64,000 nt of DNA from contig OY970260.1 of the NCBI GenBank assembly GCA_963715625.1, forward strand, positions 2,439,520-2,503,519, read 5' to 3'. Under the pieces are notes generated by a model, which saw only the letters and a program-made list of their open reading frames with translations, did no database searches and was not told the DNA's origin. Made by a program: the position numbers and the translations under genes. The stretch is from an uncultured Solirubrobacterales bacterium (lineage in GTDB: Bacteria; Actinomycetota; Thermoleophilia; Solirubrobacterales; 70-9). Within the stretch, counting starts at the first letter, position 1. Each line of letters begins with the position of its first letter. Below are positions 38,530 through 57,613 of the stretch, piece after piece.

Positions 38530-39474
38530 ATGGCAGTCGCAACCCCATCGCCTCCCCGCACCGAGTCCCGCTTCGAGGGCCTCGTCCTCGACTTCCTCTC
38601 CTACCTCGAGCTCGAGCGCGGCCTCTCGCGCAACACGCTCGACGCCTACCGCACCGACCTTCACCAGTACGGCGAGTTCCTCGCCGCCCGCGACATCGAT
38701 GCCCTCGCCGCGGGGCCAGCCGACATCAGCGATTTCCTCGCCGGGCTGGCGACGGGTGAGGGGCGGCCCGCCTGTTCCTCTTCCACCGTGCACCGCAAGG
38801 CCGCCTGCCTGCGCTCCTTCTACAAGCAGTTGCGCCGCGACGAGCTGATCGGCGACGACCCGACCGCGGCGCTGAGCGCCCCGCGCCGGGCGAAGAAGCT
38901 GCCCCAGGTCCTCAACTACGCCGAGGTTCAGAAGCTTCTCGCGGCCCCGCAGGGCAACGAGCCGGCGGCATTGCGCGACCGGGCGCTGCTGGAGGTGATG
39001 TACGCCTGCGGGCTGCGCGCCTCGGAGACGATCGGGCTGGAGCTCGGTGACGTCGACCTGCACGAGGGGTTCCTCCGTGCCCGCGGCAAGGGCAGCAAGG
39101 AACGGCTGGTGCCGCTCGGCCGCAAGGCGATCGCGGCGATCTCCGCCTACCTGCGCGGCGGGCGGCCGAAGCTGATCGGCGAACGCCACGAGACGAAGCT
39201 CTTCGTCAACTTTCGCGGCGGACCGCTCAGCCGCCAGGGCCTCTACAAGATCGTCCAGCGCAACGCCCGCGCCGCCGGCCTGGCCGGCCAGATGAGCCCG
39301 CACACGCTGCGCCACAGCTTCGCCACCCACCTGCTGGCGGGGGGCTGCGACCTACGCGCCGTCCAGGAGATGCTCGGCCACGCCGACATCGCGACCACCC
39401 AGCTCTACACCCACCTCTCCGGCGAGCACCTCAAGGACGCCTACTTCAAGGCCCACCCCCGCGCGACCGCATGA
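38530..39474 (+). CDS. xerD: site-specific tyrosine recombinase XerD
   Basis: SAM-like N-domain (FLSYLELERGLSRNTLDAYRTDL), catalytic RHSFATHLL...LGHADIATTQLYTH. Confidence 0.9.
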   Translation: MAVATPSPPRTESRFEGLVLDFLSYLELERGLSRNTLDAYRTDLHQYGEFLAARDIDALAAGPADISDFLAGLATGEGRPACSSSTVHRKAACLRSFYKQLRRDELIGDDPTAALSAPRRAKKLPQVLNYAEVQKLLAAPQGNEPAALRDRALLEVMYACGLRASETIGLELGDVDLHEGFLRARGKGSKERLVPLGRKAIAAISAYLRGGRPKLIGERHETKLFVNFRGGPLSRQGLYKIVQRNARAAGLAGQMSPHTLRHSFATHLLAGGCDLRAVQEMLGHADIATTQLYTHLSGEHLKDAYFKAHPRATA

Positions 39475-44182: not shown

Positions 44183-44902
44183 ATGGACAAGCGGTTTCTG
44201 GAGGATTGCTTGGCGAAAGGGATGTCGCTGGAGACAATCGGCAAGGCGACAGGGAAGCACCCGTCAACGGTCGGCTACTGGATGCAGAAGCACGGCCTCA
44301 GGGCCAACGGGGCGAAGAAGTACGCGCGCCGAGGCGCTGTTGCGTGCGATGAGCTCGAAGCGCTCGTAGACGGTGGTGCGAGCCTGGTCGAAATCGCGGA
44401 AGCTCTCGATCGCAGCGTGTCGACGGTCAGATACTGGCTCGCGCGATACGAGATCGAGACGACTCGACCCCGCGGGCCACGGCGGCGGATTGGCGATGGG
44501 TCGAAGACCGCGACTTTCGATTGCAGACGGCATGGTCGCACCGAGTTCATCCTTGAGGGGTGCGGCTATTACAGGTGTAAGCAGTGTCGGTCTGCGGCGG
44601 TCGCCAGGCGGCGAAGAACCGTGAAGAAGAGGCTTGTCGCCGAGGCTGGAGGCGCCTGCGTTCTATGCGGTTACGCCCGTTGCCTGAATGCGCTGCAATT
44701 CCATCACGTTGAGCCTGGCTCGAAGAAGTTCTACCTGGCTTACCGCGGCCACTCGCGGTCAATCGCAAGAAGTCGGGCGGAGATGCGGAAGTGCGTCCTG
44801 CTTTGCGCCAATTGCCACGCCGAGGTCGAGGGCGGGTTCGCTACCCTGCCAGTGGATTCAAGTGGCCACGTCGATGAGTCTTGTCGGCAAATAACCACTT
44901 AA
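44183..44902 (+). CDS. free-standing HNH endonuclease with two N-terminal HTH repeats and a zinc ribbon
   Basis: Duplicated SLE(T/V)I..A....STV.YW...(H/Y) HTH units; CRRHG...CKQC; HNH core CVLCGY...LQFHHVEP...CANCHAEVE; visibly lower GC than neighbours. Confidence 0.7.
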   Translation: MDKRFLEDCLAKGMSLETIGKATGKHPSTVGYWMQKHGLRANGAKKYARRGAVACDELEALVDGGASLVEIAEALDRSVSTVRYWLARYEIETTRPRGPRRRIGDGSKTATFDCRRHGRTEFILEGCGYYRCKQCRSAAVARRRRTVKKRLVAEAGGACVLCGYARCLNALQFHHVEPGSKKFYLAYRGHSRSIARSRAEMRKCVLLCANCHAEVEGGFATLPVDSSGHVDESCRQITT

Positions 44903-44916
44903 TTTGTAGTGATTGA

Positions 44917-44990
44917 TCGGGGGTAGCTCAATTAGGCAGAGCGCCGTCCTGTTAAGTCGGTGGTTGGCGGTTCGAGTCCGCCCCCCCGAG
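44917..44990 (+). tRNA. tRNA-Asn (anticodon GTT)
   Basis: Manual cloverleaf: acceptor TCGGGGG/CCCCCGA, D stem GCTC/GAGC, anticodon loop CTGTTAA, T arm GGCGG-TTCGAGT-CCGCC; one U:U mismatch at 30:40; position after dnaG matches my recollection of Mycobacterium. Confidence 0.88.
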
Positions 44991-44994
44991 CCTC

Positions 44995-48544: not shown

Positions 48545-48618
48545 GGGGCGGTAGCTCAGCTGGTCAGAGCAGCGGACTCATAATCCGTCGGTCGAAGGTT
48601 CGAGTCCTTCCCGCCCCA
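48545..48618 (+). tRNA. tRNA with CAT anticodon (elongator Met or Ile2; not initiator type)
   Basis: Manual cloverleaf: GGGGCGG/CCGCCCC acceptor with 1:72 G-C, GCTC-AGCTGGTCA-GAGC, GCGGA-CTCATAA-TCCGT, GAAGG-TTCGAGT-CCTTC. Confidence 0.92.
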
Positions 48619-48626
48619 CTAGAGCG

Positions 48627-49043
48627 TTACGCGCTAAACGAGTCGAGCGCGTTGTTCGTCCAGCCGTCGACTTCGTTGACGAGTTTCACGGCAACCTCCC
48701 GGTCGAGGGGAACCGCGTCCAGCAGCTCGTCGTAGCGCAGGGGGACGGCGTACTCGGTAAGCCGAACCACGGCTGGCGTGTCGAAGGGGAAGTCGATACC
48801 TGCGCCTTCGATCAGGGCGATGAGGTGGCGAAGATCGTGCGTGTACTCGAAGTTCACTGCGTGACGAGCGAGGACTGCCTTGAGCCACTTCTCGATGGCC
48901 TGTTGGGCGTGAAAACCGAGAACGGTGTCTGCGATTTCGGTGTTGGCTGCGAACTCTCGCAGGGCAACCGCATCCTCCGCGGCCTTGCGAGCCAGGAGGG
49001 CCGCGAGCTCTCCCGGCTCAAGCTCCTGCGAGGACCCGGCCAT
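48627..49043 (-). CDS. HEPN-domain protein (second HEPN/MNT module)
   Basis: GFHAQQAIEKWLKAVL...YTHDLRHL helices typical of HEPN; overlaps the upstream MNT gene end. Confidence 0.7.
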   Translation of the reverse strand: MAGSSQELEPGELAALLARKAAEDAVALREFAANTEIADTVLGFHAQQAIEKWLKAVLARHAVNFEYTHDLRHLIALIEGAGIDFPFDTPAVVRLTEYAVPLRYDELLDAVPLDREVAVKLVNEVDGWTNNALDSFSA

Positions 49044-49350
49044 CTTTGAGCGCTTCGTGCATCAACGTGCCCTGGACAGAGCCCCATCGCCGAGCGTGCT
49101 CGGCGCTGACCACGATCAGGTCGATCGGAACGCCCATTGCTCCGAGGGCTTCCCGAAGTCGCACGAACTCGTCTGCGCGACTACTGAGCCCCGGCTCGAC
49201 TACGAGAAGATCGAGATCTGAGCCCGGCCGGGCATTGCCACGAGCATGGGAGCCGAACAGGATTACCTTTGCGTCGGGGGCCGCCTCGGCAAGGCGTCGG
49301 CCCGCCTCGGCAATCAAGTGCTCGCTGGTCATTGCGCCAAGGTAGCTCAT
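49018..49350 (-). CDS. nucleotidyltransferase (MNT-type antitoxin-like)
   Basis: ILFGSHARGNARPGSDLDLLVV minimal NTase motif; start ATG 49350 or 49332; the N-terminal extension of the 151-aa ORF lies in repeat DNA. Confidence 0.75.
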   Translation of the reverse strand: MSYLGAMTSEHLIAEAGRRLAEAAPDAKVILFGSHARGNARPGSDLDLLVVEPGLSSRADEFVRLREALGAMGVPIDLIVVSAEHARRWGSVQGTLMHEALKDGRVLAGA

Positions 49351-49399
49351 GGCCGTGACGGCTCGGCCCGTTGATCGCGCTAACCGCCTCATTCCGCGC

Positions 49400-49552
49400 T
49401 GAAACTTGGTCCCGAAATTGGTCCCCGACTCCACCGAACTCAGCCGAACTCCCTGGACGCAGTTCGCTGTCACAGGCCAGATTCGGCTCTATAGACGGGT
49501 TCCGGCGCGACTCATAATCCGTCGGTCGAAGGTTCGAGTCCTTCCCGCCCCA
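49400..49552 (+). repeat. island-end repeat plus att core copy 2 (tRNA 3' half)
   Basis: 49509..49552 is 44/44 identical to tRNA positions 48575..48618; the preceding ~105 bp is about 90% identical to 50493..50602. Confidence 0.88.
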
Positions 49553-49714
49553 TCAAGAAACGGCTCTGGAATGCGAAGTGTCGAGATCGCGAAGGAGATT
49601 TGGTCCCGAAATTGGTCCCGAACTCCCCCGGACCGCTCCGGACCGTGCCCTACCGCTTCGCGCCGGGGGGGGGCATGACAAGGCGGCACCCGGTTAGGCA
49701 GAGTGCCGGGCCAG

Positions 49715-50353
49715 ATGCAGCGCGCGAACGTCTACATCGACGGCTTCAATCTCTTCTACGGGGCGCTCAAAGGCCGGGCGCCACTCAAGTGGCTTGACCT
49801 CGCGGCCTTCGGTCGCGCCCTGCTGCTCCCCGATCAGGAACTGCATCGGCTCCGCTACTTCACAGCCCGGGTAGGTGGGCGAGCGGTCGATCCTCACCTC
49901 CCACAGCGCCAGGACACCTACCTGCGCGCCGTGGCGACACTGCCGGAGGTTTCGGTTCACGAAGGCTACTTCCAGACCAAACCGGCCCGGTTGCCTCTGG
50001 CGTCCTCGCCGACCGACGCGCCGGAGATCGTCGAGGTCCTGCGAACGGAGGAGAAGGGCTCCGACGTGAACCTTGCTACTCACCTGCTGCTCGACGCCTT
50101 CCGCCAGGACGCCGAGGTCGCCGTCGTCGTCTCCGACGACTACGACCTCAAGGAGCCGTTGCGGGTCGTCGTCAGCGCACTCGGTCGGACGCTCGGCGTC
50201 GCAAGCCCACGGTGCAGCCCGCGACTCGGCCGCGCCGTGGAGGCGAGCTTCTACCGGCCCCTTCACGAGGCGACACTGCGCGAATGCCAGCTCCCGGCGA
50301 CGGTGGAGACGGACGGCGGTGCGATCAGCCGACCCGCCAGCTGGTCGCCCTAG
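49715..50353 (+). CDS. NYN-domain (LabA/DUF88-like) protein
   Basis: ANVYIDGFNLFYG N-terminus and EEKGSDVNLATHLLLDA...VVVSDDYDL, typical NYN/PIN-like acidic motifs. Confidence 0.7.
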   Translation: MQRANVYIDGFNLFYGALKGRAPLKWLDLAAFGRALLLPDQELHRLRYFTARVGGRAVDPHLPQRQDTYLRAVATLPEVSVHEGYFQTKPARLPLASSPTDAPEIVEVLRTEEKGSDVNLATHLLLDAFRQDAEVAVVVSDDYDLKEPLRVVVSALGRTLGVASPRCSPRLGRAVEASFYRPLHEATLRECQLPATVETDGGAISRPASWSP

Positions 50354-50362
50354 AAAAAGTGA

Positions 50363-50380
50363 GGCCGCCTTGCGGCGGCC
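50363..50380 (+). terminator. short GC hairpin after the NYN gene
   Basis: GGCCGCC TTGC GGCGGCC 10 nt after the stop; no U-tract. Confidence 0.3.
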
Positions 50381-50492
50381 CCCCTCCGGCTCCCGAAGCA
50401 ACCGGAGTACGTGCTTGCAGGGTAGCAGGGCGTCCGGCCCCCGGCGCCGGAAGAGGCTGAAAAAGCAGCCGTCCAAGCTTGTCCGATGGCCT

Positions 50493-50646
50493 CGAAAACT
50501 TGGTTCCGAAATTGGTCCCCGACTCCACCGAGCTCAGCCGAACTCCTTGGACGCGATTCGCTCTATTGGGCCAAATTCGGCTCTATAGACGGGTTCCGGC
50601 GCGACTCATAATCCGTGGAGCGCAGGTTCGAGTCCTGCCCGCCCCA
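50493..50646 (+). repeat. island-end repeat plus att core copy 3 (diverged tRNA 3' half)
   Basis: 50603..50646 matches the tRNA 3' half at 39/44; T stem GCAGG/CCTGC versus GAAGG/CCTTC is a compensatory pair. Confidence 0.85.
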
Positions 50647-50657
50647 TAGTCGAGCGG

Positions 50658-50976
50658 TCAACCAGTTGCGTGCGCGGGCTCGCGAATCGTCCGCCGGGCG
50701 ATGCGCGCTCCGGACGCCGGCTCGAAACGGCCGTAGAGAACCTCCGGATTGTTGACGGCTCGCTCCCAGTTGGCCTCGAGTTCGTCACGATGCTGCTCGA
50801 CCCATTCTCGCACGAGCCGTAGCGCCCGGCTGGAAAGAGATCCTGCGAGAACTGCCCCCGTCGCGATCTCGATCTTGGCCGAATTCGCCGCTGTAGCGGG
50901 CATGAAGATGTGGCGGTGGATGATCGCCGAAGTACATCTCGATCACGATTCCGAAGAAGCTGTTGATGCGGGGCCT
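50658..50976 (-). pseudogene. DUF4160-family gene remnant (start lost, 1-nt frameshift)
   Basis: RPRINSFFGIVIEMYFGDHPPPHLHARYSGEF in one frame, AKIEIATGAVLAGSLSSRALRLVREWVEQHRDELEANWE in another; AGG where ATG is expected. Confidence 0.55.
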
Positions 50977-51142
50977 TCGCCTCGTGCTGCTTCGCCTGCG
51001 CCACGCGCTCGCCCACCTGGTCGCCGGTCAGGGTGGAGAGCGGCGGGTCGATCGCGTCGCCGTCGAGATTGGCCTAAGACCGAGACCGAGACCGCCCTGG
51101 CGGCGCACCGTGAGCGCGCCTTGAGGCGCGATCTCCGGGGAG

Positions 51143-52330
51143 CTACGGCCGGTTGCGGCCGTAGCGGTCGTGTGCTTTGACCCATTCCGAGGCCATGATC
51201 GCCCAGCCCAGCGACAGCTCGCCGCAGAGCACCGTTGCCGCGACGATCTCGGCGAGCTTGCGGACCTTCCCGCTGCCGTAGCAGCCGAGCAGCTCCAGGC
51301 ATTCGCGCTGGGTGGCGAGCCCGGTGCCGCCGCCGTAGGTGGCGACGATCAGCGAGGGAAGCGTGATCGAGGCGTAGTAGTCGCCGTTTGGGAGCAGCTC
51401 GCTGAAGCCGAGGGCCGCCGAGGACTCGGCGACGTTGGCCGCGTCCTGGCCGGTGGCGATGAACAGGGCGGCGGTTCCGTTGGCCGACTGGAGGCCGTTG
51501 TTGTTGACCCCGGACATAAAGCCGCCGAGGTTCGCCACGTGCCGTATCCGCAGCAGCTTCTCGCCGCTCGTGTGCATCTGCTCCGCGATCAGGGCGGCTG
51601 GAATCGTCGCCTCCGCGACGACGCGCTTGCCCCGCGTGCGCAGCACGTTGATCTGGGAACTCTTCTTGTCGGTGGCGAAGTTCGACTCTAGATAGAAGTC
51701 GGTTATGCCCTCGTAGTTGGAGGTGATCCAGGCGCACGCCGCCGCGGTCGCCTTGCTCGAGAGGTTCTGACCCGCGGCGTCGCCGGTCGTGTAGTCAAAG
51801 CGCGTGAATAGGATCCGGCTGGCGGAATACTGCTCGATGCCGCGCAGCCGGCCGCTGCTGGTGGTGGCCTCGGCCGCTTGCCTGATCTCCTCGAAGTGCT
51901 CGGTTAGCCATTCCCCGAACGCTCGTGCCTCGCGGGCGCTCTCGAACACGAAGGCGGGGGCGCGCTGCATGGCGTCGTCGAGGATCGTGGTCTTCACGCC
52001 GCCGGCCTCGCGCAGCGTCTTCATCCCGCGGTTGTAGCTGGCCACCAGCGTGCCCTCGCTGGTGGCCAAGGGAACGTAGAACTCACCCTGCGCGTACTCC
52101 CCGTCGACGAGTAGCGGGCCGGCGACGCCGATCGGCACCTGCGCCACCCCGGTGAAGTGCTCGATGTTGCCGGACAGAACCGACGGATCGAAGGAGTAGT
52201 GGGAGACGTGCTCCAGCCCGACGCCCGTCTGCTCGCGCAGAAAGGCGCGACGCGCCTCTGCGGCCTCGGGCGTGTAGTCGTTCTCGCGATCACGCGGGAT
52301 CTTCTTGCGTTTCGACCGGGTGGGCGTCAT
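51143..52330 (-). CDS. hmgA: class I-type HMG-CoA reductase (catalytic domain only)
   Basis: ATG 52330 with AGGAG 8 nt upstream; motifs EGTLVAS, TGDAAGQN, ATDKK, YGGGTG. Confidence 0.87.
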   Translation of the reverse strand: MTPTRSKRKKIPRDRENDYTPEAAEARRAFLREQTGVGLEHVSHYSFDPSVLSGNIEHFTGVAQVPIGVAGPLLVDGEYAQGEFYVPLATSEGTLVASYNRGMKTLREAGGVKTTILDDAMQRAPAFVFESAREARAFGEWLTEHFEEIRQAAEATTSSGRLRGIEQYSASRILFTRFDYTTGDAAGQNLSSKATAAACAWITSNYEGITDFYLESNFATDKKSSQINVLRTRGKRVVAEATIPAALIAEQMHTSGEKLLRIRHVANLGGFMSGVNNNGLQSANGTAALFIATGQDAANVAESSAALGFSELLPNGDYYASITLPSLIVATYGGGTGLATQRECLELLGCYGSGKVRKLAEIVAATVLCGELSLGWAIMASEWVKAHDRYGRNRP

Positions 52331-52555
52331 CTGGTCTGCTCCTGCCGGAACCACGATGCTCATGCATGAATCTACAAGCTCGCCTTCTGCCCGGTACAGG
52401 CTCGTTTTGGCTGGCTGTCCAGCACGCAAATGATCCGTAGCTTTTCCGGATGCGGGCTGTCGCGATGCAGGCAAGGATTTGAGCTGCAACTCTTGCCAAG
52501 CGCCCCGATGGGGCGACGAACGGCTAACCCGACGGGGAAGCGGAAGGAAGTGCAA

Positions 52556-52831
52556 ATGGGACTCGCAGACAAATCGGTGGAGCTGTCCGAAGAAGTGTTG
52601 GAGGAGATCAAAGACGGACAGGAGGCGGCAATCGGCGCGGTTCGCAGCTTCGTCGGCAGCGTCAACAAGACCCTCGCTGGATCGGCGAGCCCCTCGCAGG
52701 TCGAGGAAATCGTCAACTCGGCCCTGAAGATGGCCGACAAGCTGGTCGAAACCCAGTACGACTTCCTGAAGAAAGTCGTGCACAGCGCCGGCGAGTCGGT
52801 TGCGGCCGGCGAGGAGGCAAAGTCGGAATGA
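52556..52831 (+). CDS. small helical protein (phasin-like?), 91 aa
   Basis: ATG 52556 after GGAAGGAAG; helical, no domain recognised; overlaps the start of the next small ORF. Confidence 0.5.
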   Translation: MGLADKSVELSEEVLEEIKDGQEAAIGAVRSFVGSVNKTLAGSASPSQVEEIVNSALKMADKLVETQYDFLKKVVHSAGESVAAGEEAKSE

Positions 52832-53142
52832 CCGCGCCCAAAGCGGAAGTCGCCAAAGCCGCAGACAAGGAGACCAAGGAGCTCTCCGAGCAGTGGCTCG
52901 AGCTGATCAGGACCGGCCAGGGGGCGTTGGCCGAGACGCTGTCGGAGTTCGTCGAGACCGTGCGGAGGGTGGTGCCGAGCGCCGGCGTCGCCAAGCAGCG
53001 GGAGATCATCAACTCCGGCCTGGAGATGGCGCAGGCGATCGCCCGGGCTCAGCACAACGCCGTGCGGAGCATCGCGCGCAGCGTCGTGGTGGTCAACGTG
53101 GAGGTCGATACGGACGTCAACGTAGACGTAGACGTGGCCTGA
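52828..53142 (+). CDS. small helical protein, 104 aa, with V/D-alternating C-terminal tail
   Basis: Translationally coupled to the previous ORF; tail VVVVNVEVDTDVNVDVDVA. Confidence 0.5.
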   Translation: MTAPKAEVAKAADKETKELSEQWLELIRTGQGALAETLSEFVETVRRVVPSAGVAKQREIINSGLEMAQAIARAQHNAVRSIARSVVVVNVEVDTDVNVDVDVA

Positions 53143-53317
53143 CCGCGAGGCGAAACGCAGCGCGTCGCCTAGATCCGCTTGCGGAGGATCTCGCCGGAGG
53201 CGAGATCGAGGGAGAACATGTGGGTTTGGTTCGCGTGGAGGTCGAGGCCACGCGCGGCATAGTGTCGGTCATGGTCGGCACCTCCCAAAGTTGGGGTTGA
53301 ACTGAACCGCCCATAGA

Positions 53318-54655
53318 GTGTCATCTGTGGTCTCGCTAGAGGCAATCCCGATCCCGCCGATCCCGCGCCCTCCTCTGGTGCCCGACCCGTTGCGGCGCAT
53401 TCGGGCGCCCCGCGACCTCGGGGCGGTCAGCGCGCGCGCTGACGAGGTGGCCGATGTCGAGGCGCTGGGCATGGCGGCCACCGGCATCGAGCGGATCTGG
53501 GCCGGAGTGGAGCGCCTGTACCGCAGTGGCTTCTATCCGGCGATCGCTCTCTGCGTGCGTCGCCACGGTCAGGTCGTGCTCGACCGCGCGATTGGTCATG
53601 CGTGCGGCAACGGGCCGTCCGACCGACAGGACGCGGCGCGCACGCTGGCCACGCCCGAGACGCCGTTCGTCATCTTCTCCGCATCCAAGGCGATGACGGC
53701 CGTCGTGGCCCACCTGCTCGACGAGCGCGGGCTGCTGCATGTAGACGACCGAGTGTGCGAGTACATCCCCGAGTACGCTGCCCACGGCAAGGAGGCCATC
53801 ACCATCGGGCAGGTGCTCTCCCACCGCGCGGGGGTGCCGAACCTGCCGGCCGACGCGTTCGATCTGGACCGCTTTGGAGACCGGGAGTTCCGGCTGGAGA
53901 CGTTGTGCGCGGCCAAACCCCGCTCGCGCCCTGGGAAGCTGCTCTCCTACCACGCGGTGTCGGGCGGCTTCATCATCGCTGAGATCGTGCAGCGGGTGAC
54001 CGGCAGGGACATTCGCACCGTGCTGGGGCAGGAGATCCTCGACCCGCTCGGTTTTCGCTGGGGAAACTACGGCGTCAGCCCGAAGGACGTCGAGCGTGTC
54101 GCCGTGAGCTACCCCACCGGCCCGCCGGCGCTGCCGCCGCTGTCCACCGTGCTCCAGCGTGCGCTGGGCCTCCCGCCGGATGAGATCACCGTCCGCTCCA
54201 ACGACCCGCGTTTCCTCACCGGCATCGTTCCGTCCGGCAATGTCGTCACAACCGCCAACGAGCTCTCGCGCTTCTTCGAGTTGCTGGGCGCCGGTGGCGA
54301 GCTCGACGGCGTGCGCATCCTCGAGCCGCGCACGATCCGCCGCGCCATATCCGAGCGGGCGTTTCGCGAGATCGACTTCTCCCTGGTGGCTCCCCTGCGC
54401 CACGCCAGTGGGTTCATGCTGGGCGCTAGGGCGGTCAGCCTGTTCGGTCCCGACACCGAGGAGGCATTCGGCCACCTCGGCTTCACCAACGTACTCGGCT
54501 GGGCCGACCCCGAGCGCGCGCTGTCGGTAGGCCTGATGACCAGCGGGAAGCCTATGCTTCACCCGGCTTTGGGGGACCTGTGGCTGCTCACGCGTGCGAT
54601 CGGCCAGGAGGCGCCCAAGGTGGCACGCACGGGAATCTGGTTCACGGAAACCTGA
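53318..54655 (+). CDS. serine hydrolase, beta-lactamase/esterase (class C-like) family
   Basis: S-x-x-K motif FSASKAM, downstream YHA(V) Tyr motif; start uncertain. Confidence 0.78.
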   Translation: MSSVVSLEAIPIPPIPRPPLVPDPLRRIRAPRDLGAVSARADEVADVEALGMAATGIERIWAGVERLYRSGFYPAIALCVRRHGQVVLDRAIGHACGNGPSDRQDAARTLATPETPFVIFSASKAMTAVVAHLLDERGLLHVDDRVCEYIPEYAAHGKEAITIGQVLSHRAGVPNLPADAFDLDRFGDREFRLETLCAAKPRSRPGKLLSYHAVSGGFIIAEIVQRVTGRDIRTVLGQEILDPLGFRWGNYGVSPKDVERVAVSYPTGPPALPPLSTVLQRALGLPPDEITVRSNDPRFLTGIVPSGNVVTTANELSRFFELLGAGGELDGVRILEPRTIRRAISERAFREIDFSLVAPLRHASGFMLGARAVSLFGPDTEEAFGHLGFTNVLGWADPERALSVGLMTSGKPMLHPALGDLWLLTRAIGQEAPKVARTGIWFTET

Positions 54656-55086
54656 GCTCGACCTCGGTTCGCCTGGCGGCACATTTGCTCGCAGTCGGAC
54701 ATGCGGACACCACGCAGACCCCAGCCTCGGTCCGTTCCTCGGGGAGTGAAATAGACGCGAATAGTTTCAATGATGGCCTCATTCAGATGGCCGATCCGCT
54801 CATAGCTCTCGGGAGTAACTACTCCTCTGGTCACCGGGAAGAAGAAGATGTTCTTGGCGCTCGCCTCCTTGAGTTCGGATCTCAAACGCCCCTCTTTTTC
54901 GAGCCGTTTGCAGAGCTTGTAGACCTTCTCGCGGTCTGCTCCGAGTTGGATGGCGAGCTCGCGCGTCGTCAAAGGCCCAATGGCTTCAAGGGTTTCAACA
55001 ATTTGTGTCTCCACACTCCGAGGGTAAGTGACTGGTCGGACAATCCTCCCGGGCGTCAGCTCAATTCCTATTCGCGGCAGCCGCAT
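54559..55086 (-). CDS. winged-helix DNA-binding protein (hypothetical)
   Basis: IVETLEAIGPLTTRELAIQLGADREKVYKLCKRLEKEGRL; lower GC; the 3' end overlaps the convergent hydrolase gene, so the true stop is uncertain. Confidence 0.4.
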   Translation of the reverse strand: MRLPRIGIELTPGRIVRPVTYPRSVETQIVETLEAIGPLTTRELAIQLGADREKVYKLCKRLEKEGRLRSELKEASAKNIFFFPVTRGVVTPESYERIGHLNEAIIETIRVYFTPRGTDRGWGLRGVRMSDCEQMCRQANRGRAQVSVNQIPVRATLGASWPIARVSSHRSPKAG

Positions 55087-55366
55087 CGGATTGCGCTTCA
55101 GCCCGGAAGCTATGCGGCTCGCCGTCGTTAGGAGCTGGCCTGGCCCGCGTTGGGCGACGATTCTTCTGCGATGCGGGCTAAAAGCGCAGCAAGCATGGAC
55201 CCTCAGGCGCGTGCAGCCGAAAAGCGGCGCTCGGCGCCTTGACGAACGCGCGATCTCCGGCGGCGGCAAGTCGGTTGCTCAGCTGAAGCGCGAGAACGAG
55301 GTTTTTGCCCCGCTGGCGACCGATGCCCGGATAGAGTTCGCTGCCTCCCGCTCCCTCGGCTGATCG

Positions 55367-55750
55367 ATGCCCGAGAAGCCTCCTCTCCGCCCCGAAGAGG
55401 TGCGGCGCATCCTGCGCGAGCTGGCACCGCTGTCGGAGGACCGACGGATCATCCTTGTCGGAGGGCAGGCTGTGGCCTTCTGGGCCGCCTTCTTCAAGCT
55501 GAAGCCGCGCTCAGCAGAGCAGGAGATCTTCACGAGCAAGGACATCGATTTCGAGGGCGCAGCGAGAACGGCGCGGAGGGCCGGCGAGCTTCTGGGCGGC
55601 GAGGTGCAAATTCCGACGATTGACGACCACACGCCAAACACCGGGATTGTCCTGTTTGAGGATTCCGAAGGGGAGACGCGGGAGATCGATTTTCTCGTGG
55701 CCCCCTACGGCTTGGACGGTCGGGATGTCCGCGACAGCGCGGTGCTTCTC
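55367..55750 (+). pseudogene. nucleotidyltransferase-like (AbiEii/DUF6036-like?) gene fragment
   Basis: RIILVGGQAVAFWA...TSKDIDFEG pattern; native-looking only for ~130 aa; the ORF then reads through unrelated DNA to 56224. Confidence 0.35.
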
Positions 55751-55751
55751 T

Positions 55752-55916
55752 GCCGCACGGATCAAGGCACGCGGCGGCCTCGCCTACGCGGACGCCTTTT
55801 GTGTCGCAACCGCGGAGCGCCTGCAGGCAGCGCTTTTTTGGACGGGCGATCCAGAGATCGTGGCCGTGTCCGGAAGCGTGAGCTGCGAGGTCGTGGATCT
55901 GCGCGGCGGAGGCTGA
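55752..55916 (+). pseudogene. C-terminal remnant of a PIN-domain (VapC-like) toxin gene
   Basis: ARGGLAYADAFCVATAERLQAALFWTGDPEI resembles a VapC C-terminus; no N-terminal part present. Confidence 0.45.
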
Positions 55917-56028
55917 CTCACATCGAAGGGCTCGGGTTACGTCGCCACCGCTGCAGCGAAGGCCGCGGGTGGCGCGTAGAGGCCCCGCCCGCGGCCTTGT
56001 TGCATCGAGAGGATCGAGTGCTTGGCGG

Positions 56029-57063
56029 CTACCTACCCACTGTGACGCTCACCTTCGAGCCTGACTTGAGGACCTTGCCGGGCTTTGGGGTTTGCTTGAG
56101 CACCTTGCCCGACTTTCCCTCGCTGCGCTTGACCTTGCCGAGCTTGCAGTCGGCTCGGCGCAGGGACTTCTTGGCGGTCTTCAGGGTCTTGCCCTTCAGC
56201 TTCGGGACCGTGCAGCCTTCGTAGTAGAAGCGGTCGGCCTTGACCGTGGGGCTGGTCCCGGCCAGCGTGGTCACTGTTACGTCGACCGCGCCGACCTTGG
56301 TGCTGCGGGGGGCGATCGCGGTGATCTGTGTGTCCGATTCCACGGTGAAGCCGGTGGCGGGGACCGCGCCGAACTTGACCGCGCTCGCGGCGTTGAAGTC
56401 GGTGCCCGTGATCTTCATCGTGGTTCCACCGGCGACCGGGCCGAAGTCGGGCTCGAGCGAGCTGACCGCGGGGGTCGGCTGGACTTCGGCGCTGAGCTCG
56501 ACCTCCTTGCCCGAGACGGTGCCGCTGGGCGCCACCGTCGCCCCGTCGAAGGGCGGCGGGAAGACGAAGCCGTAGCTCGCCCCGGCGACGTCGGCGACCC
56601 CGATCGTGTCGGTGCCGTTGCTCGGGTCGACCCCGATCAGGTCTCCGGCTCGGATCGGGAGGTTCGTGCTGAAGGTCTGCAGCCCGGTGCCGGACGGGGT
56701 GGCCGGGTTGCTCGTGCCCATCGCGCTGTAGGCGCCTGAGCCGTTGGGCCGGAGCACCCGCAGGAAGAACGGGCCCCCTTTGGCGCCCTGCACGCGCCAG
56801 CGCACGATCGCACCGTTCACCGGCGAGACCAGGTTGGCGCCTTTCTCGGGAAGGGCGGTGTTGAAGAGGGTCTGCACCTGCCCGAATTCCGTGGGCGTGG
56901 ACCCAAGCGGGAGGACGCTCCCGATGGTGATGGTGGATGCCTGCGCGCCCCCTGCGCCGACGAGGGCGACCGCGATCGCCGTTGCGAGCGCCGACGTGAG
57001 AAGCCGTTTGGCCAGCCTGGTTTGCGCAGCCGTGTTCGCACGGCCACGATGTGGTCGAAACAT
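56029..57063 (-). CDS. secreted protein with IPT/TIG-like and C-terminal PASTA-like domains
   Basis: ATG 57063 after AAGGAGG; signal peptide; GPVAGGTTMKITGTDF...VTV (IPT/TIG-like); CTVPKLKGKTLKTAKKSL...GKVLKQTPKPG (PASTA-like). Confidence 0.65.
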   Translation of the reverse strand: MFRPHRGRANTAAQTRLAKRLLTSALATAIAVALVGAGGAQASTITIGSVLPLGSTPTEFGQVQTLFNTALPEKGANLVSPVNGAIVRWRVQGAKGGPFFLRVLRPNGSGAYSAMGTSNPATPSGTGLQTFSTNLPIRAGDLIGVDPSNGTDTIGVADVAGASYGFVFPPPFDGATVAPSGTVSGKEVELSAEVQPTPAVSSLEPDFGPVAGGTTMKITGTDFNAASAVKFGAVPATGFTVESDTQITAIAPRSTKVGAVDVTVTTLAGTSPTVKADRFYYEGCTVPKLKGKTLKTAKKSLRRADCKLGKVKRSEGKSGKVLKQTPKPGKVLKSGSKVSVTVGR

Positions 57064-57220
57064 TCCCCATGCCTCCTTAGGTTGTGACACCCGGGCTCCC
57101 GGTGGAGCGTCCGGACGAGTTCGGATGCAGAAACCGCTACACCGATGAATGTTGCGGTGGGCGCCCGGCATATACTCGCGCCCGTCGTTCCAATCCACGT
57201 CGTTCCGAGGGGGAGAGCAA

Positions 57221-57613
57221 GTGAGCGCACCTAACGAACCCGAGCGGCTGAACCAGGAAGGGTTCGCCGTGTTCTCGCAGCGGGCCGGCGACGATGCCCC
57301 GGTGGTGATGCTGAACCTCCTCGCCTTCAAGCCCGACGGAGGGCAGAAGCGCTATGAGGAATACGGCGCCGCCGTCGCCCCGCTGCTCGAGAAGGTGGGA
57401 GGGCGCATCGTCTTCGTCGGGGCGCCCGCGACGGCGCTGCTGGGCGACGACTCCTGGGACCTCGTCGCGCTCGTCGAGTATCCGACCCGGCAGGCCTTCC
57501 TCGACATGATCGCCTCGACCGAGTACCAGGCGATCGGGCACCTGCGCACCGAGGCGCTGGCCAAGGGCGAGCTGCACCCGATGGATGCGGGCGAGATGCC
57601 GACCTTCAGCTAG
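57221..57613 (+). CDS. DUF1330-domain protein
   Basis: VVMLNLLAFK...WDLVALVEYPTRQAFLDM pattern; GTG 57221. Confidence 0.65.
   Translation: MSAPNEPERLNQEGFAVFSQRAGDDAPVVMLNLLAFKPDGGQKRYEEYGAAVAPLLEKVGGRIVFVGAPATALLGDDSWDLVALVEYPTRQAFLDMIASTEYQAIGHLRTEALAKGELHPMDAGEMPTFS

Follow-up and report, generated by a model that had tools for sequence, protein, structure and literature searches.

A probable accreted array of integrase-less cassettes at a tRNA-Met gene in Solirubrobacterales

How did several copies of the 3' half of one tRNA gene come to lie in tandem on a bacterial chromosome, with small cargo genes and no integrase between them? This question is raised by a locus in a 64,000-nt stretch of contig OY970260.1 (assembly GCA_963715625.1, forward strand, positions 2,439,520 to 2,503,519) from an uncultured Solirubrobacterales bacterium; we refer to the whole stretch as the window and count positions from its first letter. 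A sequence-only reading of this DNA had described two tandem integrase-less elements at a tRNA gene with a CAT anticodon, delimited by three copies of the tRNA 3' half. We favor, with a rough probability of 0.7, the explanation that the locus is an accreted array resembling cis-mobilizable elements (CIMEs), made of integrase-less, att-bounded cassettes from an undescribed Solirubrobacterales family of IMEs (integrative mobilizable elements) residing at tRNA-Met(CAT) and tRNA-Arg(TCT). Structures of this kind are already known, and it is the element family and its scale that are new. The units in the window are derivatives of the family, not autonomous members, and the literature searched contained nothing on such a system in Solirubrobacterales.

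The tRNA-Met(CAT) gene is intact at 48545-48618 on the forward strand (74.9 bits in Rfam; the ARAGORN call is 48545-48619), and its G1-C72 pair, as we take it, speaks against an initiator tRNA. The last 44 nt of the gene, from 2 nt 5' of the anticodon loop through the discriminator (48575-48618, +; repeat family D2), form the first copy of the core and represent the attL core. A second copy at 49509-49552 (+), identical to the tRNA at 44/44 positions, closes cassette 1 as its attR core and opens cassette 2 as its attL core. The third copy, at 50603-50646 (+), is 39/44 identical and was designated variant B; its T stem reads GCAGG/CCTGC, a compensatory change as compared with GAAGG/CCTTC, and its variable loop reads GTGGAGC. 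The start-to-start distances between successive cores are 934 and 1094 nt. Sub-patterns of 14-22 nt from the core occurred three times, against 0.00-0.13 expected from shuffled sequences. ARAGORN and Infernal gave no tRNA call for copies 2 and 3, leaving copy 1 as the only called tRNA of the three. The positions, identities and compensatory T stem given in the sequence-only reading were thus all reproduced.

Cassettes 1 and 2 have a right end in common that spans 152 nt including the core, at 89% identity. The part preceding the core is a 107-nt conserved sequence, found as arm 1 at 49402-49508 (+; nhmmer 112 bits, E 1e-32) and as arm 2 at 50496-50602 (+; 114 bits). The two arms are identical at 96/107 positions and differ at the other 11. 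Each is composed of three direct-repeat pairs, namely TTGGTCCC, CCGAACTC and GATTCG..CTCTAT, and the TTGGTCCC octamers of arm 1 start at 49406 and 49418. This shared sequence had previously been taken, at a length of about 105 bp, as just the ends of the elements; we identify it as the P arm, that is, the left arm of attP, which is conserved across the order and more so than the chromosomal flank. At the left end of cassette 2, we also found a P'-type motif that had escaped the sequence-only reading (49596-49643, +), with TTGGTCCC octamers at 49600 and 49612; these start 48 nt past core 2, and the NYN-like gene of this cassette follows about 100 nt downstream. The 64-kb window contains no cores or arms other than these.

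No integrase, excisionase, relaxase, replication or transfer gene was found in the region of 48.6-57.3 kb, in agreement with the earlier view of tandem att-bounded elements lacking an integrase at the tRNA 3' half. The sole tyrosine recombinase in the window is XerD (38530-39474), which lies in housekeeping synteny.

The arm and core module in other Solirubrobacterales

An exact search for TTGGTYCCGAAATTGGTCCC, with one genome per species, returned at least 119 stretches, nearly all from metagenome-assembled genomes of Solirubrobacterales. These loci from relatives, designated by L-numbers, were examined as 8-kb tiles. A profile of the arm gave 206 matches in them, of which 164 were full length. 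Among the full modules, 93 precede a tRNA-Met-type 3' half and 55 a tRNA-Arg(TCT)-type half, while a few arms adjoin Lys, Thr or other CAT-type tRNA halves. Wherever a module and an intact tRNA-Met or tRNA-Arg gene occurred in the same tile (57/57 pairs), the module was downstream of the tRNA and co-oriented with it, and up to four full modules were present per tile. The segments from one core to the next arm (93 in total) measure 0.05-6.1 kb, with a median of 1.36 kb. Their cargo falls into 126 similarity clusters among 232 open reading frames (ORFs), as predicted by a gene caller filtered for G+C at third codon positions (GC3); stop-to-stop ORFs gave mostly spurious antisense clusters in this high-GC DNA. 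HEPN/MNT pairs are the commonest cargo, and Mrr, GmrSD-like, DUF4160 and HicB-like proteins, IS481 transposases and others also occur, in mixed orientation.

The nature of the arm was assessed from its variation. Its indels are not multiples of three, which indicates a non-coding sequence; its folding was no better than that of shuffled sequences on either strand (z -0.07 to -0.42); and it had no match in Rfam. On these three grounds, we regard the arm as a double-stranded DNA site and not as a gene or a structured RNA. In phage and plasmid collections, searched by blastn and in a distant mode, only the tRNA itself and one NYN gene were matched, and IMG/VR contained no exact copy of the arm motif.

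The Met-type cores occur in T-stem and variable-loop variants, which bear on the earlier claim that core 3 is the displaced ancestral end of the chromosome. Intact tRNA genes of different species carry variant A (20), C (6) or B (4), and modules likewise carry A (38), B (18) or C (4), in any order along the arrays. The GCAGG/CCTGC stem of core 3 is therefore not an ancestral sign but a circulating variant, carried by 18 modules, wherever they stand in an array, and by four intact tRNA-Met genes of other species. Moreover, a truncated cassette 3, also absent from the sequence-only reading, lies beyond core 3 at 50647-50974, and its counterpart in locus L033 is bounded by modules. Core 3 cannot then be read as the ancestral chromosomal end, and the array has at least three units instead of two.

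Several further observations concern the cores and arms. Chimeric Met cores (L013 at 4658, L068 at 5477, and others) combine T-stem halves of different variants that cannot pair, such as GCTGG/TTCCC, which implies that crossovers or gene conversion took place within the core, at the conserved GGTTCGAGTCC. Divergent arms in which only the octamer pair is kept (L017, L028/L077, L031, L034, L057 and L080) precede 3' halves of Lys CTT, Lys TTT, Thr CGT-like and other CAT-type tRNAs; from these junctions, other tRNAs seem to have become targets as the element family radiated. ARAGORN also called a tRNA-Asp(ATC) on an arm and core module (L094 at 5908) and a tRNA-SeC in coding-looking sequence (L047 at 3808); both calls are probably false and due to partial tRNA sequence.

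To what enzyme do these sites belong? An iterative profile detected ten tyrosine-recombinase ORFs in all of the loci and the window. Two Arg-type loci (L041 and L054) carry a 388-aa tyrosine integrase with an N-terminal extension, HVFKRKGKRG.VWYAKYRLPDGRQ, which presumably resembles arm-binding domains, though Pfam detected no arm-binding domain. About 128 clusters of relatives, 80-100% identical to this integrase, were present among the matches listed, all from Solirubrobacterales where the source was named, and we examined the genomic context of five of them (L120-L126). In L121-L126, the gene order is that of the window: DUF3866, XerD, Fpg, RecO, dGTPase, DnaG, tRNA-Asn (GTT anticodon, 44917-44992 in the window), a glycosyltransferase, a short-chain dehydrogenase/reductase, a lipoprotein, Hpt and tRNA-Met. 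The tRNA-Met gene is followed in these loci by an octamer pair, a tyrosine integrase of 386-388 aa, an HTH_17 excisionase on the opposite strand and a TrwC or Replic_Relax relaxase, and L120 shows the same layout at tRNA-Arg(TCT). Throughout L120-L126, the P' pair of TTGGTCCC is separated from the tRNA by approximately 58-60 nt and precedes the int start codon by 25-45 nt.

Two of these loci reveal the ends of the elements. L123 contains a complete 5.6-kb element, with identical 44-bp cores at both ends and the 107-nt arm at its right end. In L121, the element measures 9.5 kb and ends in an arm and a variant-B core, after which comes a cassette of 1.1 kb that lacks an integrase and has an arm and a core of its own. 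Full-length members, at 5.6-9.5 kb, show the order tRNA core, P' octamer pair, int, HTH_17 xis, relaxase, cargo, 107-nt P arm and 44-nt core. Because the integrase-bearing elements end in the same arm and core, we interpret the modules of the window, each made up of a P arm and a core, as the attR sites of this IME family. The sequence-only reading had supposed that the recombinase is encoded elsewhere, and a cognate integrase family does occur at the orthologous tRNA-Met gene of relatives.

The presence of TTGGTCCC octamers on both the P and P' sides of the core makes the pairs likely candidates for arm-type sites, by analogy with other integrases. Met and Arg cores have the anticodon stem GGACT/AATCC in common and differ in the anticodon, and Met-site integrases are 85-91% identical to Arg-site integrases, which is as close as the Arg-site integrases are among themselves. 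This comparison suggests that target choice may reside in the overlap sequence of the element. Against the integron-integrase profile, the family integrase scored 67.7 bits, as compared with a cutoff of 265.

Two other recombinases were considered as the cognate enzyme and rejected. One is a trio of tyrosine recombinases resembling recombinase-in-trio (RIT) elements, an unrelated insertion in the HEPN gene of L076 (1693-4798), of which a second copy lies downstream of the array in L084 (5271-5951). The other is encoded by a different element, 2.6 kb long, in L047 (5036-7831 in oriented coordinates). A core of another CAT-anticodon tRNA type stands at either end of this element, whose distinct P arm has GCTCCCCA/TTTGCCCCAG repeats. 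The element lies directly after a cassette ending in a TTGGTCCC-type arm, such that, as judged from the arms and cores, two related att systems appear to share one site in L047.

Cargo, occupancy and turnover

Cassette 1 (48619-49401), which has no P' motif, carries two genes on the reverse strand, a HEPN toxin (48627-49043; Pfam E 2e-13) and an MNT nucleotidyltransferase antitoxin (49018-49350; Pfam NTP_transf_2, E 3.5e-13). They share 26 nt, and this adjacency and overlap are as in type VII toxin-antitoxin systems. The pair also matches PADLOC PDC-S09, and we assign it to type VII on the basis of these domain matches and the gene arrangement. The MNT protein scored 39.2 bits with the NCBIfam MntA equivalog, below the cutoff of 60, and is at most a candidate member of the MntA subfamily. 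A gap of 8 nt separates the HEPN stop codon from the end of the tRNA. From core to core, cassette 1 is 84% identical at the DNA level to the third cassette of L052. Its identity to L076, where the copy is interrupted by the recombinase trio, is 87-89%, and a 73% relative was found in the tRNA-Arg array of L051.

Cassette 2 (49553-50495), which has kept both P and P' motifs, carries a gene on the forward strand for a 216-aa NYN-like protein (49703-50353), the true start of which is likely the ATG at 49715. Residues 5-215 align with positions 1-203 of the 203-position PADLOC profile HEC-09, a candidate defense protein (E 1.4e-39). The match to Pfam NYN (22.5 bits) is under the cutoff of 24.2. 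Of the cargo proposed in the sequence-only reading, the HEPN/MNT pair was accordingly confirmed by Pfam, whereas the NYN domain remained below the Pfam threshold in a protein that has a full-length HEC-09 match. The NYN-like gene and its arm are 88-89% identical at the DNA level to the second cassette of L013, where the neighbors differ and the left part is unrelated. A run of nine G residues at 49666-49674 precedes the gene. Directly past its stop codon, a GC-rich, terminator-like hairpin, GCCGCC-TTGC-GGCGGC (about 50364-50384), forms the inverted repeat I8 together with the G-rich stretch 5' of the gene. The P' octamer pair may double as an integrase-controlled operator, and the NYN-like gene may stand in the place of int. 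Neither cassette 1 nor cassette 2 has a disrupted cargo ORF.

Cassette 3 (50647-50974, 328 nt), recognized by blastn to L033, L021 and L076, is a dead fragment. It contains a piece of a DUF4160/DhiT-like toxin gene (50658-50903, -) that covers only positions 24-65 of the 65-position Pfam DUF4160 profile, and its match to the NCBIfam DhiT model is below the cutoff. Cassette 3 aligned at 83-96% identity with L033 (2620-2763 and 3013-3237), relative to which it shows a 250-bp internal deletion and the loss of its own arm and core. The homology stops at 50974.

Occupancy of the site was examined by comparison with orthologous loci, as the sequence-only reading had proposed, and was found to be highly polymorphic. 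The left flank of the window is 74-93% identical to that of eight relatives, and the homology ends exactly at the tRNA 3' end. Past the tRNA, only the modules match, at 84-93% identity, which exceeds the flank identity for 7/8 relatives. L039 is nearly empty, with about 0.9 kb and a partial arm before its sequence matches the window again at 57279; since its right flank rejoins there, the region variable relative to L039 extends over approximately 48619-57278.

The three cassettes of the window recur in other loci with different neighbors. Cassettes shared between loci are 6-14 percentage points more identical than the chromosomal flank and occupy different array positions. The cassette shared by L032 and L070, for example, is 96.9% identical against 83.3% for the flank, and is the first cassette in one array and the second in the other. 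The corresponding values are 89.1% against 78.6% for the window and L013, and 90.2% against 83.4% for L068 and L074.

Remnants of full-length elements were also found. An integrase fragment and a piece of a backbone gene follow a module in L003, an integrase pseudogene follows tRNA-Lys in L017, and the backbone genes p118 and DUF7718 occur within cassettes. In L076, a P arm is joined via the octamers to a P'-type left end, the core between them having been lost. These cases fit the published three-step model of CIME formation and resemble tycheposon islands.

Two neighboring parts of the window were noted in addition. The 6.3 kb at 50975-57278, also variable relative to L039, has no att modules. 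It holds genes for an HMG-CoA reductase (51143-52300, -), a beta-lactamase-fold protein (53318-54655) and a low-GC (0.56-0.57) helix-turn-helix protein (54559-55269, -), along with two small ORFs and two unknown proteins. Relatives of these two unknown proteins and of the P450 gene occur at distances of 1.5-4 kb from modules in L053, L089, L090, L081 and L109. Between dnaG and tRNA-Asn, a region of lower GC (44183-44902, +) encodes a 239-aa HTH_38 protein with a Cys/His-rich and possibly HNH-like C-terminus, whose relatives (51-61% identity) are present in only some of the related genomes.

Favored and competing explanations

The array in the window has attL and attR sites related to the ends of the IMEs, and integration and transfer genes are absent from 48.6-57.3 kb, as in CIMEs. 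The identity block covers the tRNA from the anticodon loop through the 3' end and leaves the gene intact, as for att sites of the anticodon-loop class, with the cognate integrase encoded outside the window. In the accretion model that we favor, the octamers would be the arm-type sites bound by the integrase and the anticodon stem would supply its core-type sites, and strand exchange would take place within the 7-nt anticodon loop. An incoming element would bring the 3' 44 nt of the tRNA, such that each insertion would rebuild a working tRNA and shift the older copy downstream; every downstream core would then once have served as a working 3' half. Serial insertions combined with loss of the int-xis-mob backbone would yield units in the order core, cargo, P arm, core. 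The surviving cargo may be addictive or defensive (HEPN/MNT, HEC-09/NYN-like and DhiT-like) and may thereby resist deletion. The units of the window would be immobile alone, and excision or co-mobilization would become possible only upon arrival of a relative that bears integrase and excisionase. Cassette 2, with both P and P' motifs, would be the best candidate for excision in trans, as compared with cassette 1, which has no P' motif. The 152-bp modules might also allow reshuffling by homologous recombination.

Several points weigh against this model. Octamer binding and anticodon-loop crossover are inferred by analogy with other tRNA-integrating tyrosine recombinases. In two homologue searches, no integrase cluster among the matches listed came from the source contig or from any contig above 1 Mb. 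The two match lists overlap almost fully, so the family of close integrases appears nearly exhausted; as none was listed from the source contig, a close resident integrase is probably absent from it, within the reach of the searches, which is that of close relatives. The window's cassettes contain no remnant of the backbone. The identity of shared cassettes above that of the flank, together with their shifted positions, does not fit simple decay. In 93 cassettes, both P' octamers were present in 3 (cassette 2 of the window included), one in 10 and none in 80, and in most cassettes the cargo lies within a few nucleotides of the core. Since random deletion should usually spare a P' site located about 58 nt from the core, simple decay requires survivorship bias or some other mechanism. 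The scarcity of P' and the identity of the cassettes leave room for recombination at the level of the cassette, with the P arm and core being sufficient.

The latter idea leads to a competing explanation, which we regard as possible, albeit rather unlikely: an integron-like platform. An integrase carried on small IMEs would insert and excise cargo mini-circles one at a time at two tRNA genes, with the P arm plus core sufficing as attP. The P' octamers would be mere operators of the int promoter, and arrays of defense and toxin-antitoxin cassettes would be built cassette by cassette and turn over faster than the chromosome. This would agree with the precise abutment of cargo and core, the absence of P' from 86% of cassettes, and the small size and diversity of the cassettes (median 1.36 kb; 126 clusters/232 ORFs). 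The location of the P' octamers 25-45 nt upstream of the int start is likewise as expected, and so are modules more conserved than the flank (85-93% against 74-82%) and cassettes that exceed the flank in similarity at different positions. However, the integrase rides on a mobile IME, and int was beside the tRNA in 0/23 array loci with an intact tRNA-Met. Decay intermediates exist, cargo orientation is mixed, and the cassettes are mosaic, the NYN cassette and its L013 counterpart having only the gene and the arm in common. The case for such a platform comes from sequence comparison.

Still less probable, in our view, is that the cassettes are inert fossils on which no integrase acts now, and that all shuffling reflects homologous recombination at the 152-bp direct repeats together with gene conversion following ordinary DNA uptake. 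The chimeric cores with mismatched T stems, such as GCTGG/TTCCC in L013, the fusion of arm and P' with loss of the core in L076, the truncation of cassette 3, and the lack of a close source-contig integrase among the matches listed would all be in line with it. Unselected fossils should, however, decay faster than their surroundings, and yet the arms stay at 85-93% identity across species with flanks at 74-82%. Cores 1 and 2 are moreover identical at all 44 positions, and the cargo of cassettes 1 and 2 is intact.

Use of the host XerC/D recombinases, as by IMEX elements or pdif modules, was suggested by cassettes lacking a recombinase and by the XerD gene 9 kb upstream. We consider this most improbable, given that the core is the anticodon-to-3' segment of a tRNA with no dif-like XerD arm, that the dedicated integrase of relatives comes with P and P' arms that match, and that XerD keeps its housekeeping synteny in all relatives whatever the content of the array. 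We likewise attach almost no weight to a structured RNA, an attC-like folded site, a repetitive extragenic palindromic (REP)-type repeat or an assembly duplication: the 107-nt repeat is indeed non-coding and strongly conserved, with a partial copy upstream of genes, but it folds no better than shuffles, has no Rfam match and consists of direct-repeat pairs, not hairpins, and its two copies in the window lie next to different genes and are unlike at 11/107 positions, in an architecture that recurs in more than 100 independent assemblies.

Taken together, these data define an undescribed mobile-element family by its att site and its integrase, excisionase and relaxase. Much of the variation in gene content at two tRNA loci of Solirubrobacterales, an abundant, almost uncultured order of soil actinobacteria, appears to stem from this family. 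A search for TTGGTCCCGAAATTGGTCCC with a tRNA 3' half about 80 nt further on is a simple way to find such hotspots. Two tRNA targets, distinguished mainly by the anticodon, which is presumed to be the overlap, are used by a single integrase family. Because the arrays concentrate toxin-antitoxin and candidate anti-phage genes, they are places to mine for defense systems. If the precise core-cargo junctions do reflect recombination at the cassette level, the family would represent a second, independently evolved cassette-array system besides integrons.

Relation to known systems

CIMEs and the accretion model are established, with ICESt1 and ICESt3 of Streptococcus thermophilus as examples (PMC5704250). 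Like CIMEs, the units described here have lost integration and transfer genes, keep attL and attR, stand one after another at a target gene's 3' end, occur beside or in place of integrase-bearing relatives, and fit growth by site-specific accretion. They differ from CIMEs in density and size (four or more modules per 8 kb, in units of 0.5-2 kb), in their recurrence across an order at two tRNA genes and in the lack of a P' motif in most units, and they are known from sequence alone.

The tycheposons of Prochlorococcus (bioRxiv 10.1101/2020.12.28.424599) are likewise elements with tyrosine integrases at tRNA genes, where successive integrations displace older ones, and their islands also contain scattered partial tRNAs, degenerate remnants and defensive or adaptive cargo. 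The present family belongs to another phylum and has another integrase family. Its backbone is that of an IME, int-xis-relaxase, in place of replication or PICI-like modules, and a 107-nt arm stands beside every partial tRNA, giving regular cassette-like units. As described (PMC3146451), the ssrA-specific islands of Dehalococcoides resemble our locus in that tandem direct repeats of a small-RNA 3' end delimit serial islands, and differ from it in the target, which is tmRNA, and in their larger, catabolic units.

With integrons, the arrays have in common small, diverse cassettes, mostly of one or two genes, a conserved recombination site in which each cassette ends, and a single fixed chromosomal locus. 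In contrast to integrons, the site is a double-stranded P arm plus tRNA core and not a folded attC, the cargo is in mixed orientation with no common promoter, and the integrase, which is far under the integron-integrase cutoff, is not a fixed neighbor of the array.

The pSAM2-type actinomycete integrative and conjugative elements (AICEs) and mycobacteriophage L5 have a tyrosine integrase in which an N-terminal extension, presumed to be arm-binding in our family, precedes the SAM-like and catalytic domains. In these elements as in our family, the identity segment extends from the anticodon loop as far as the tRNA 3' end, arm-type motifs are repeated on the flanks of the core, and an excisionase gene stands beside int. 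The comparison is one of layout. The backbone here includes a relaxase, with no FtsK-like Tra or Rep seen in it, and one integrase family serves two tRNA genes with a common anticodon stem.

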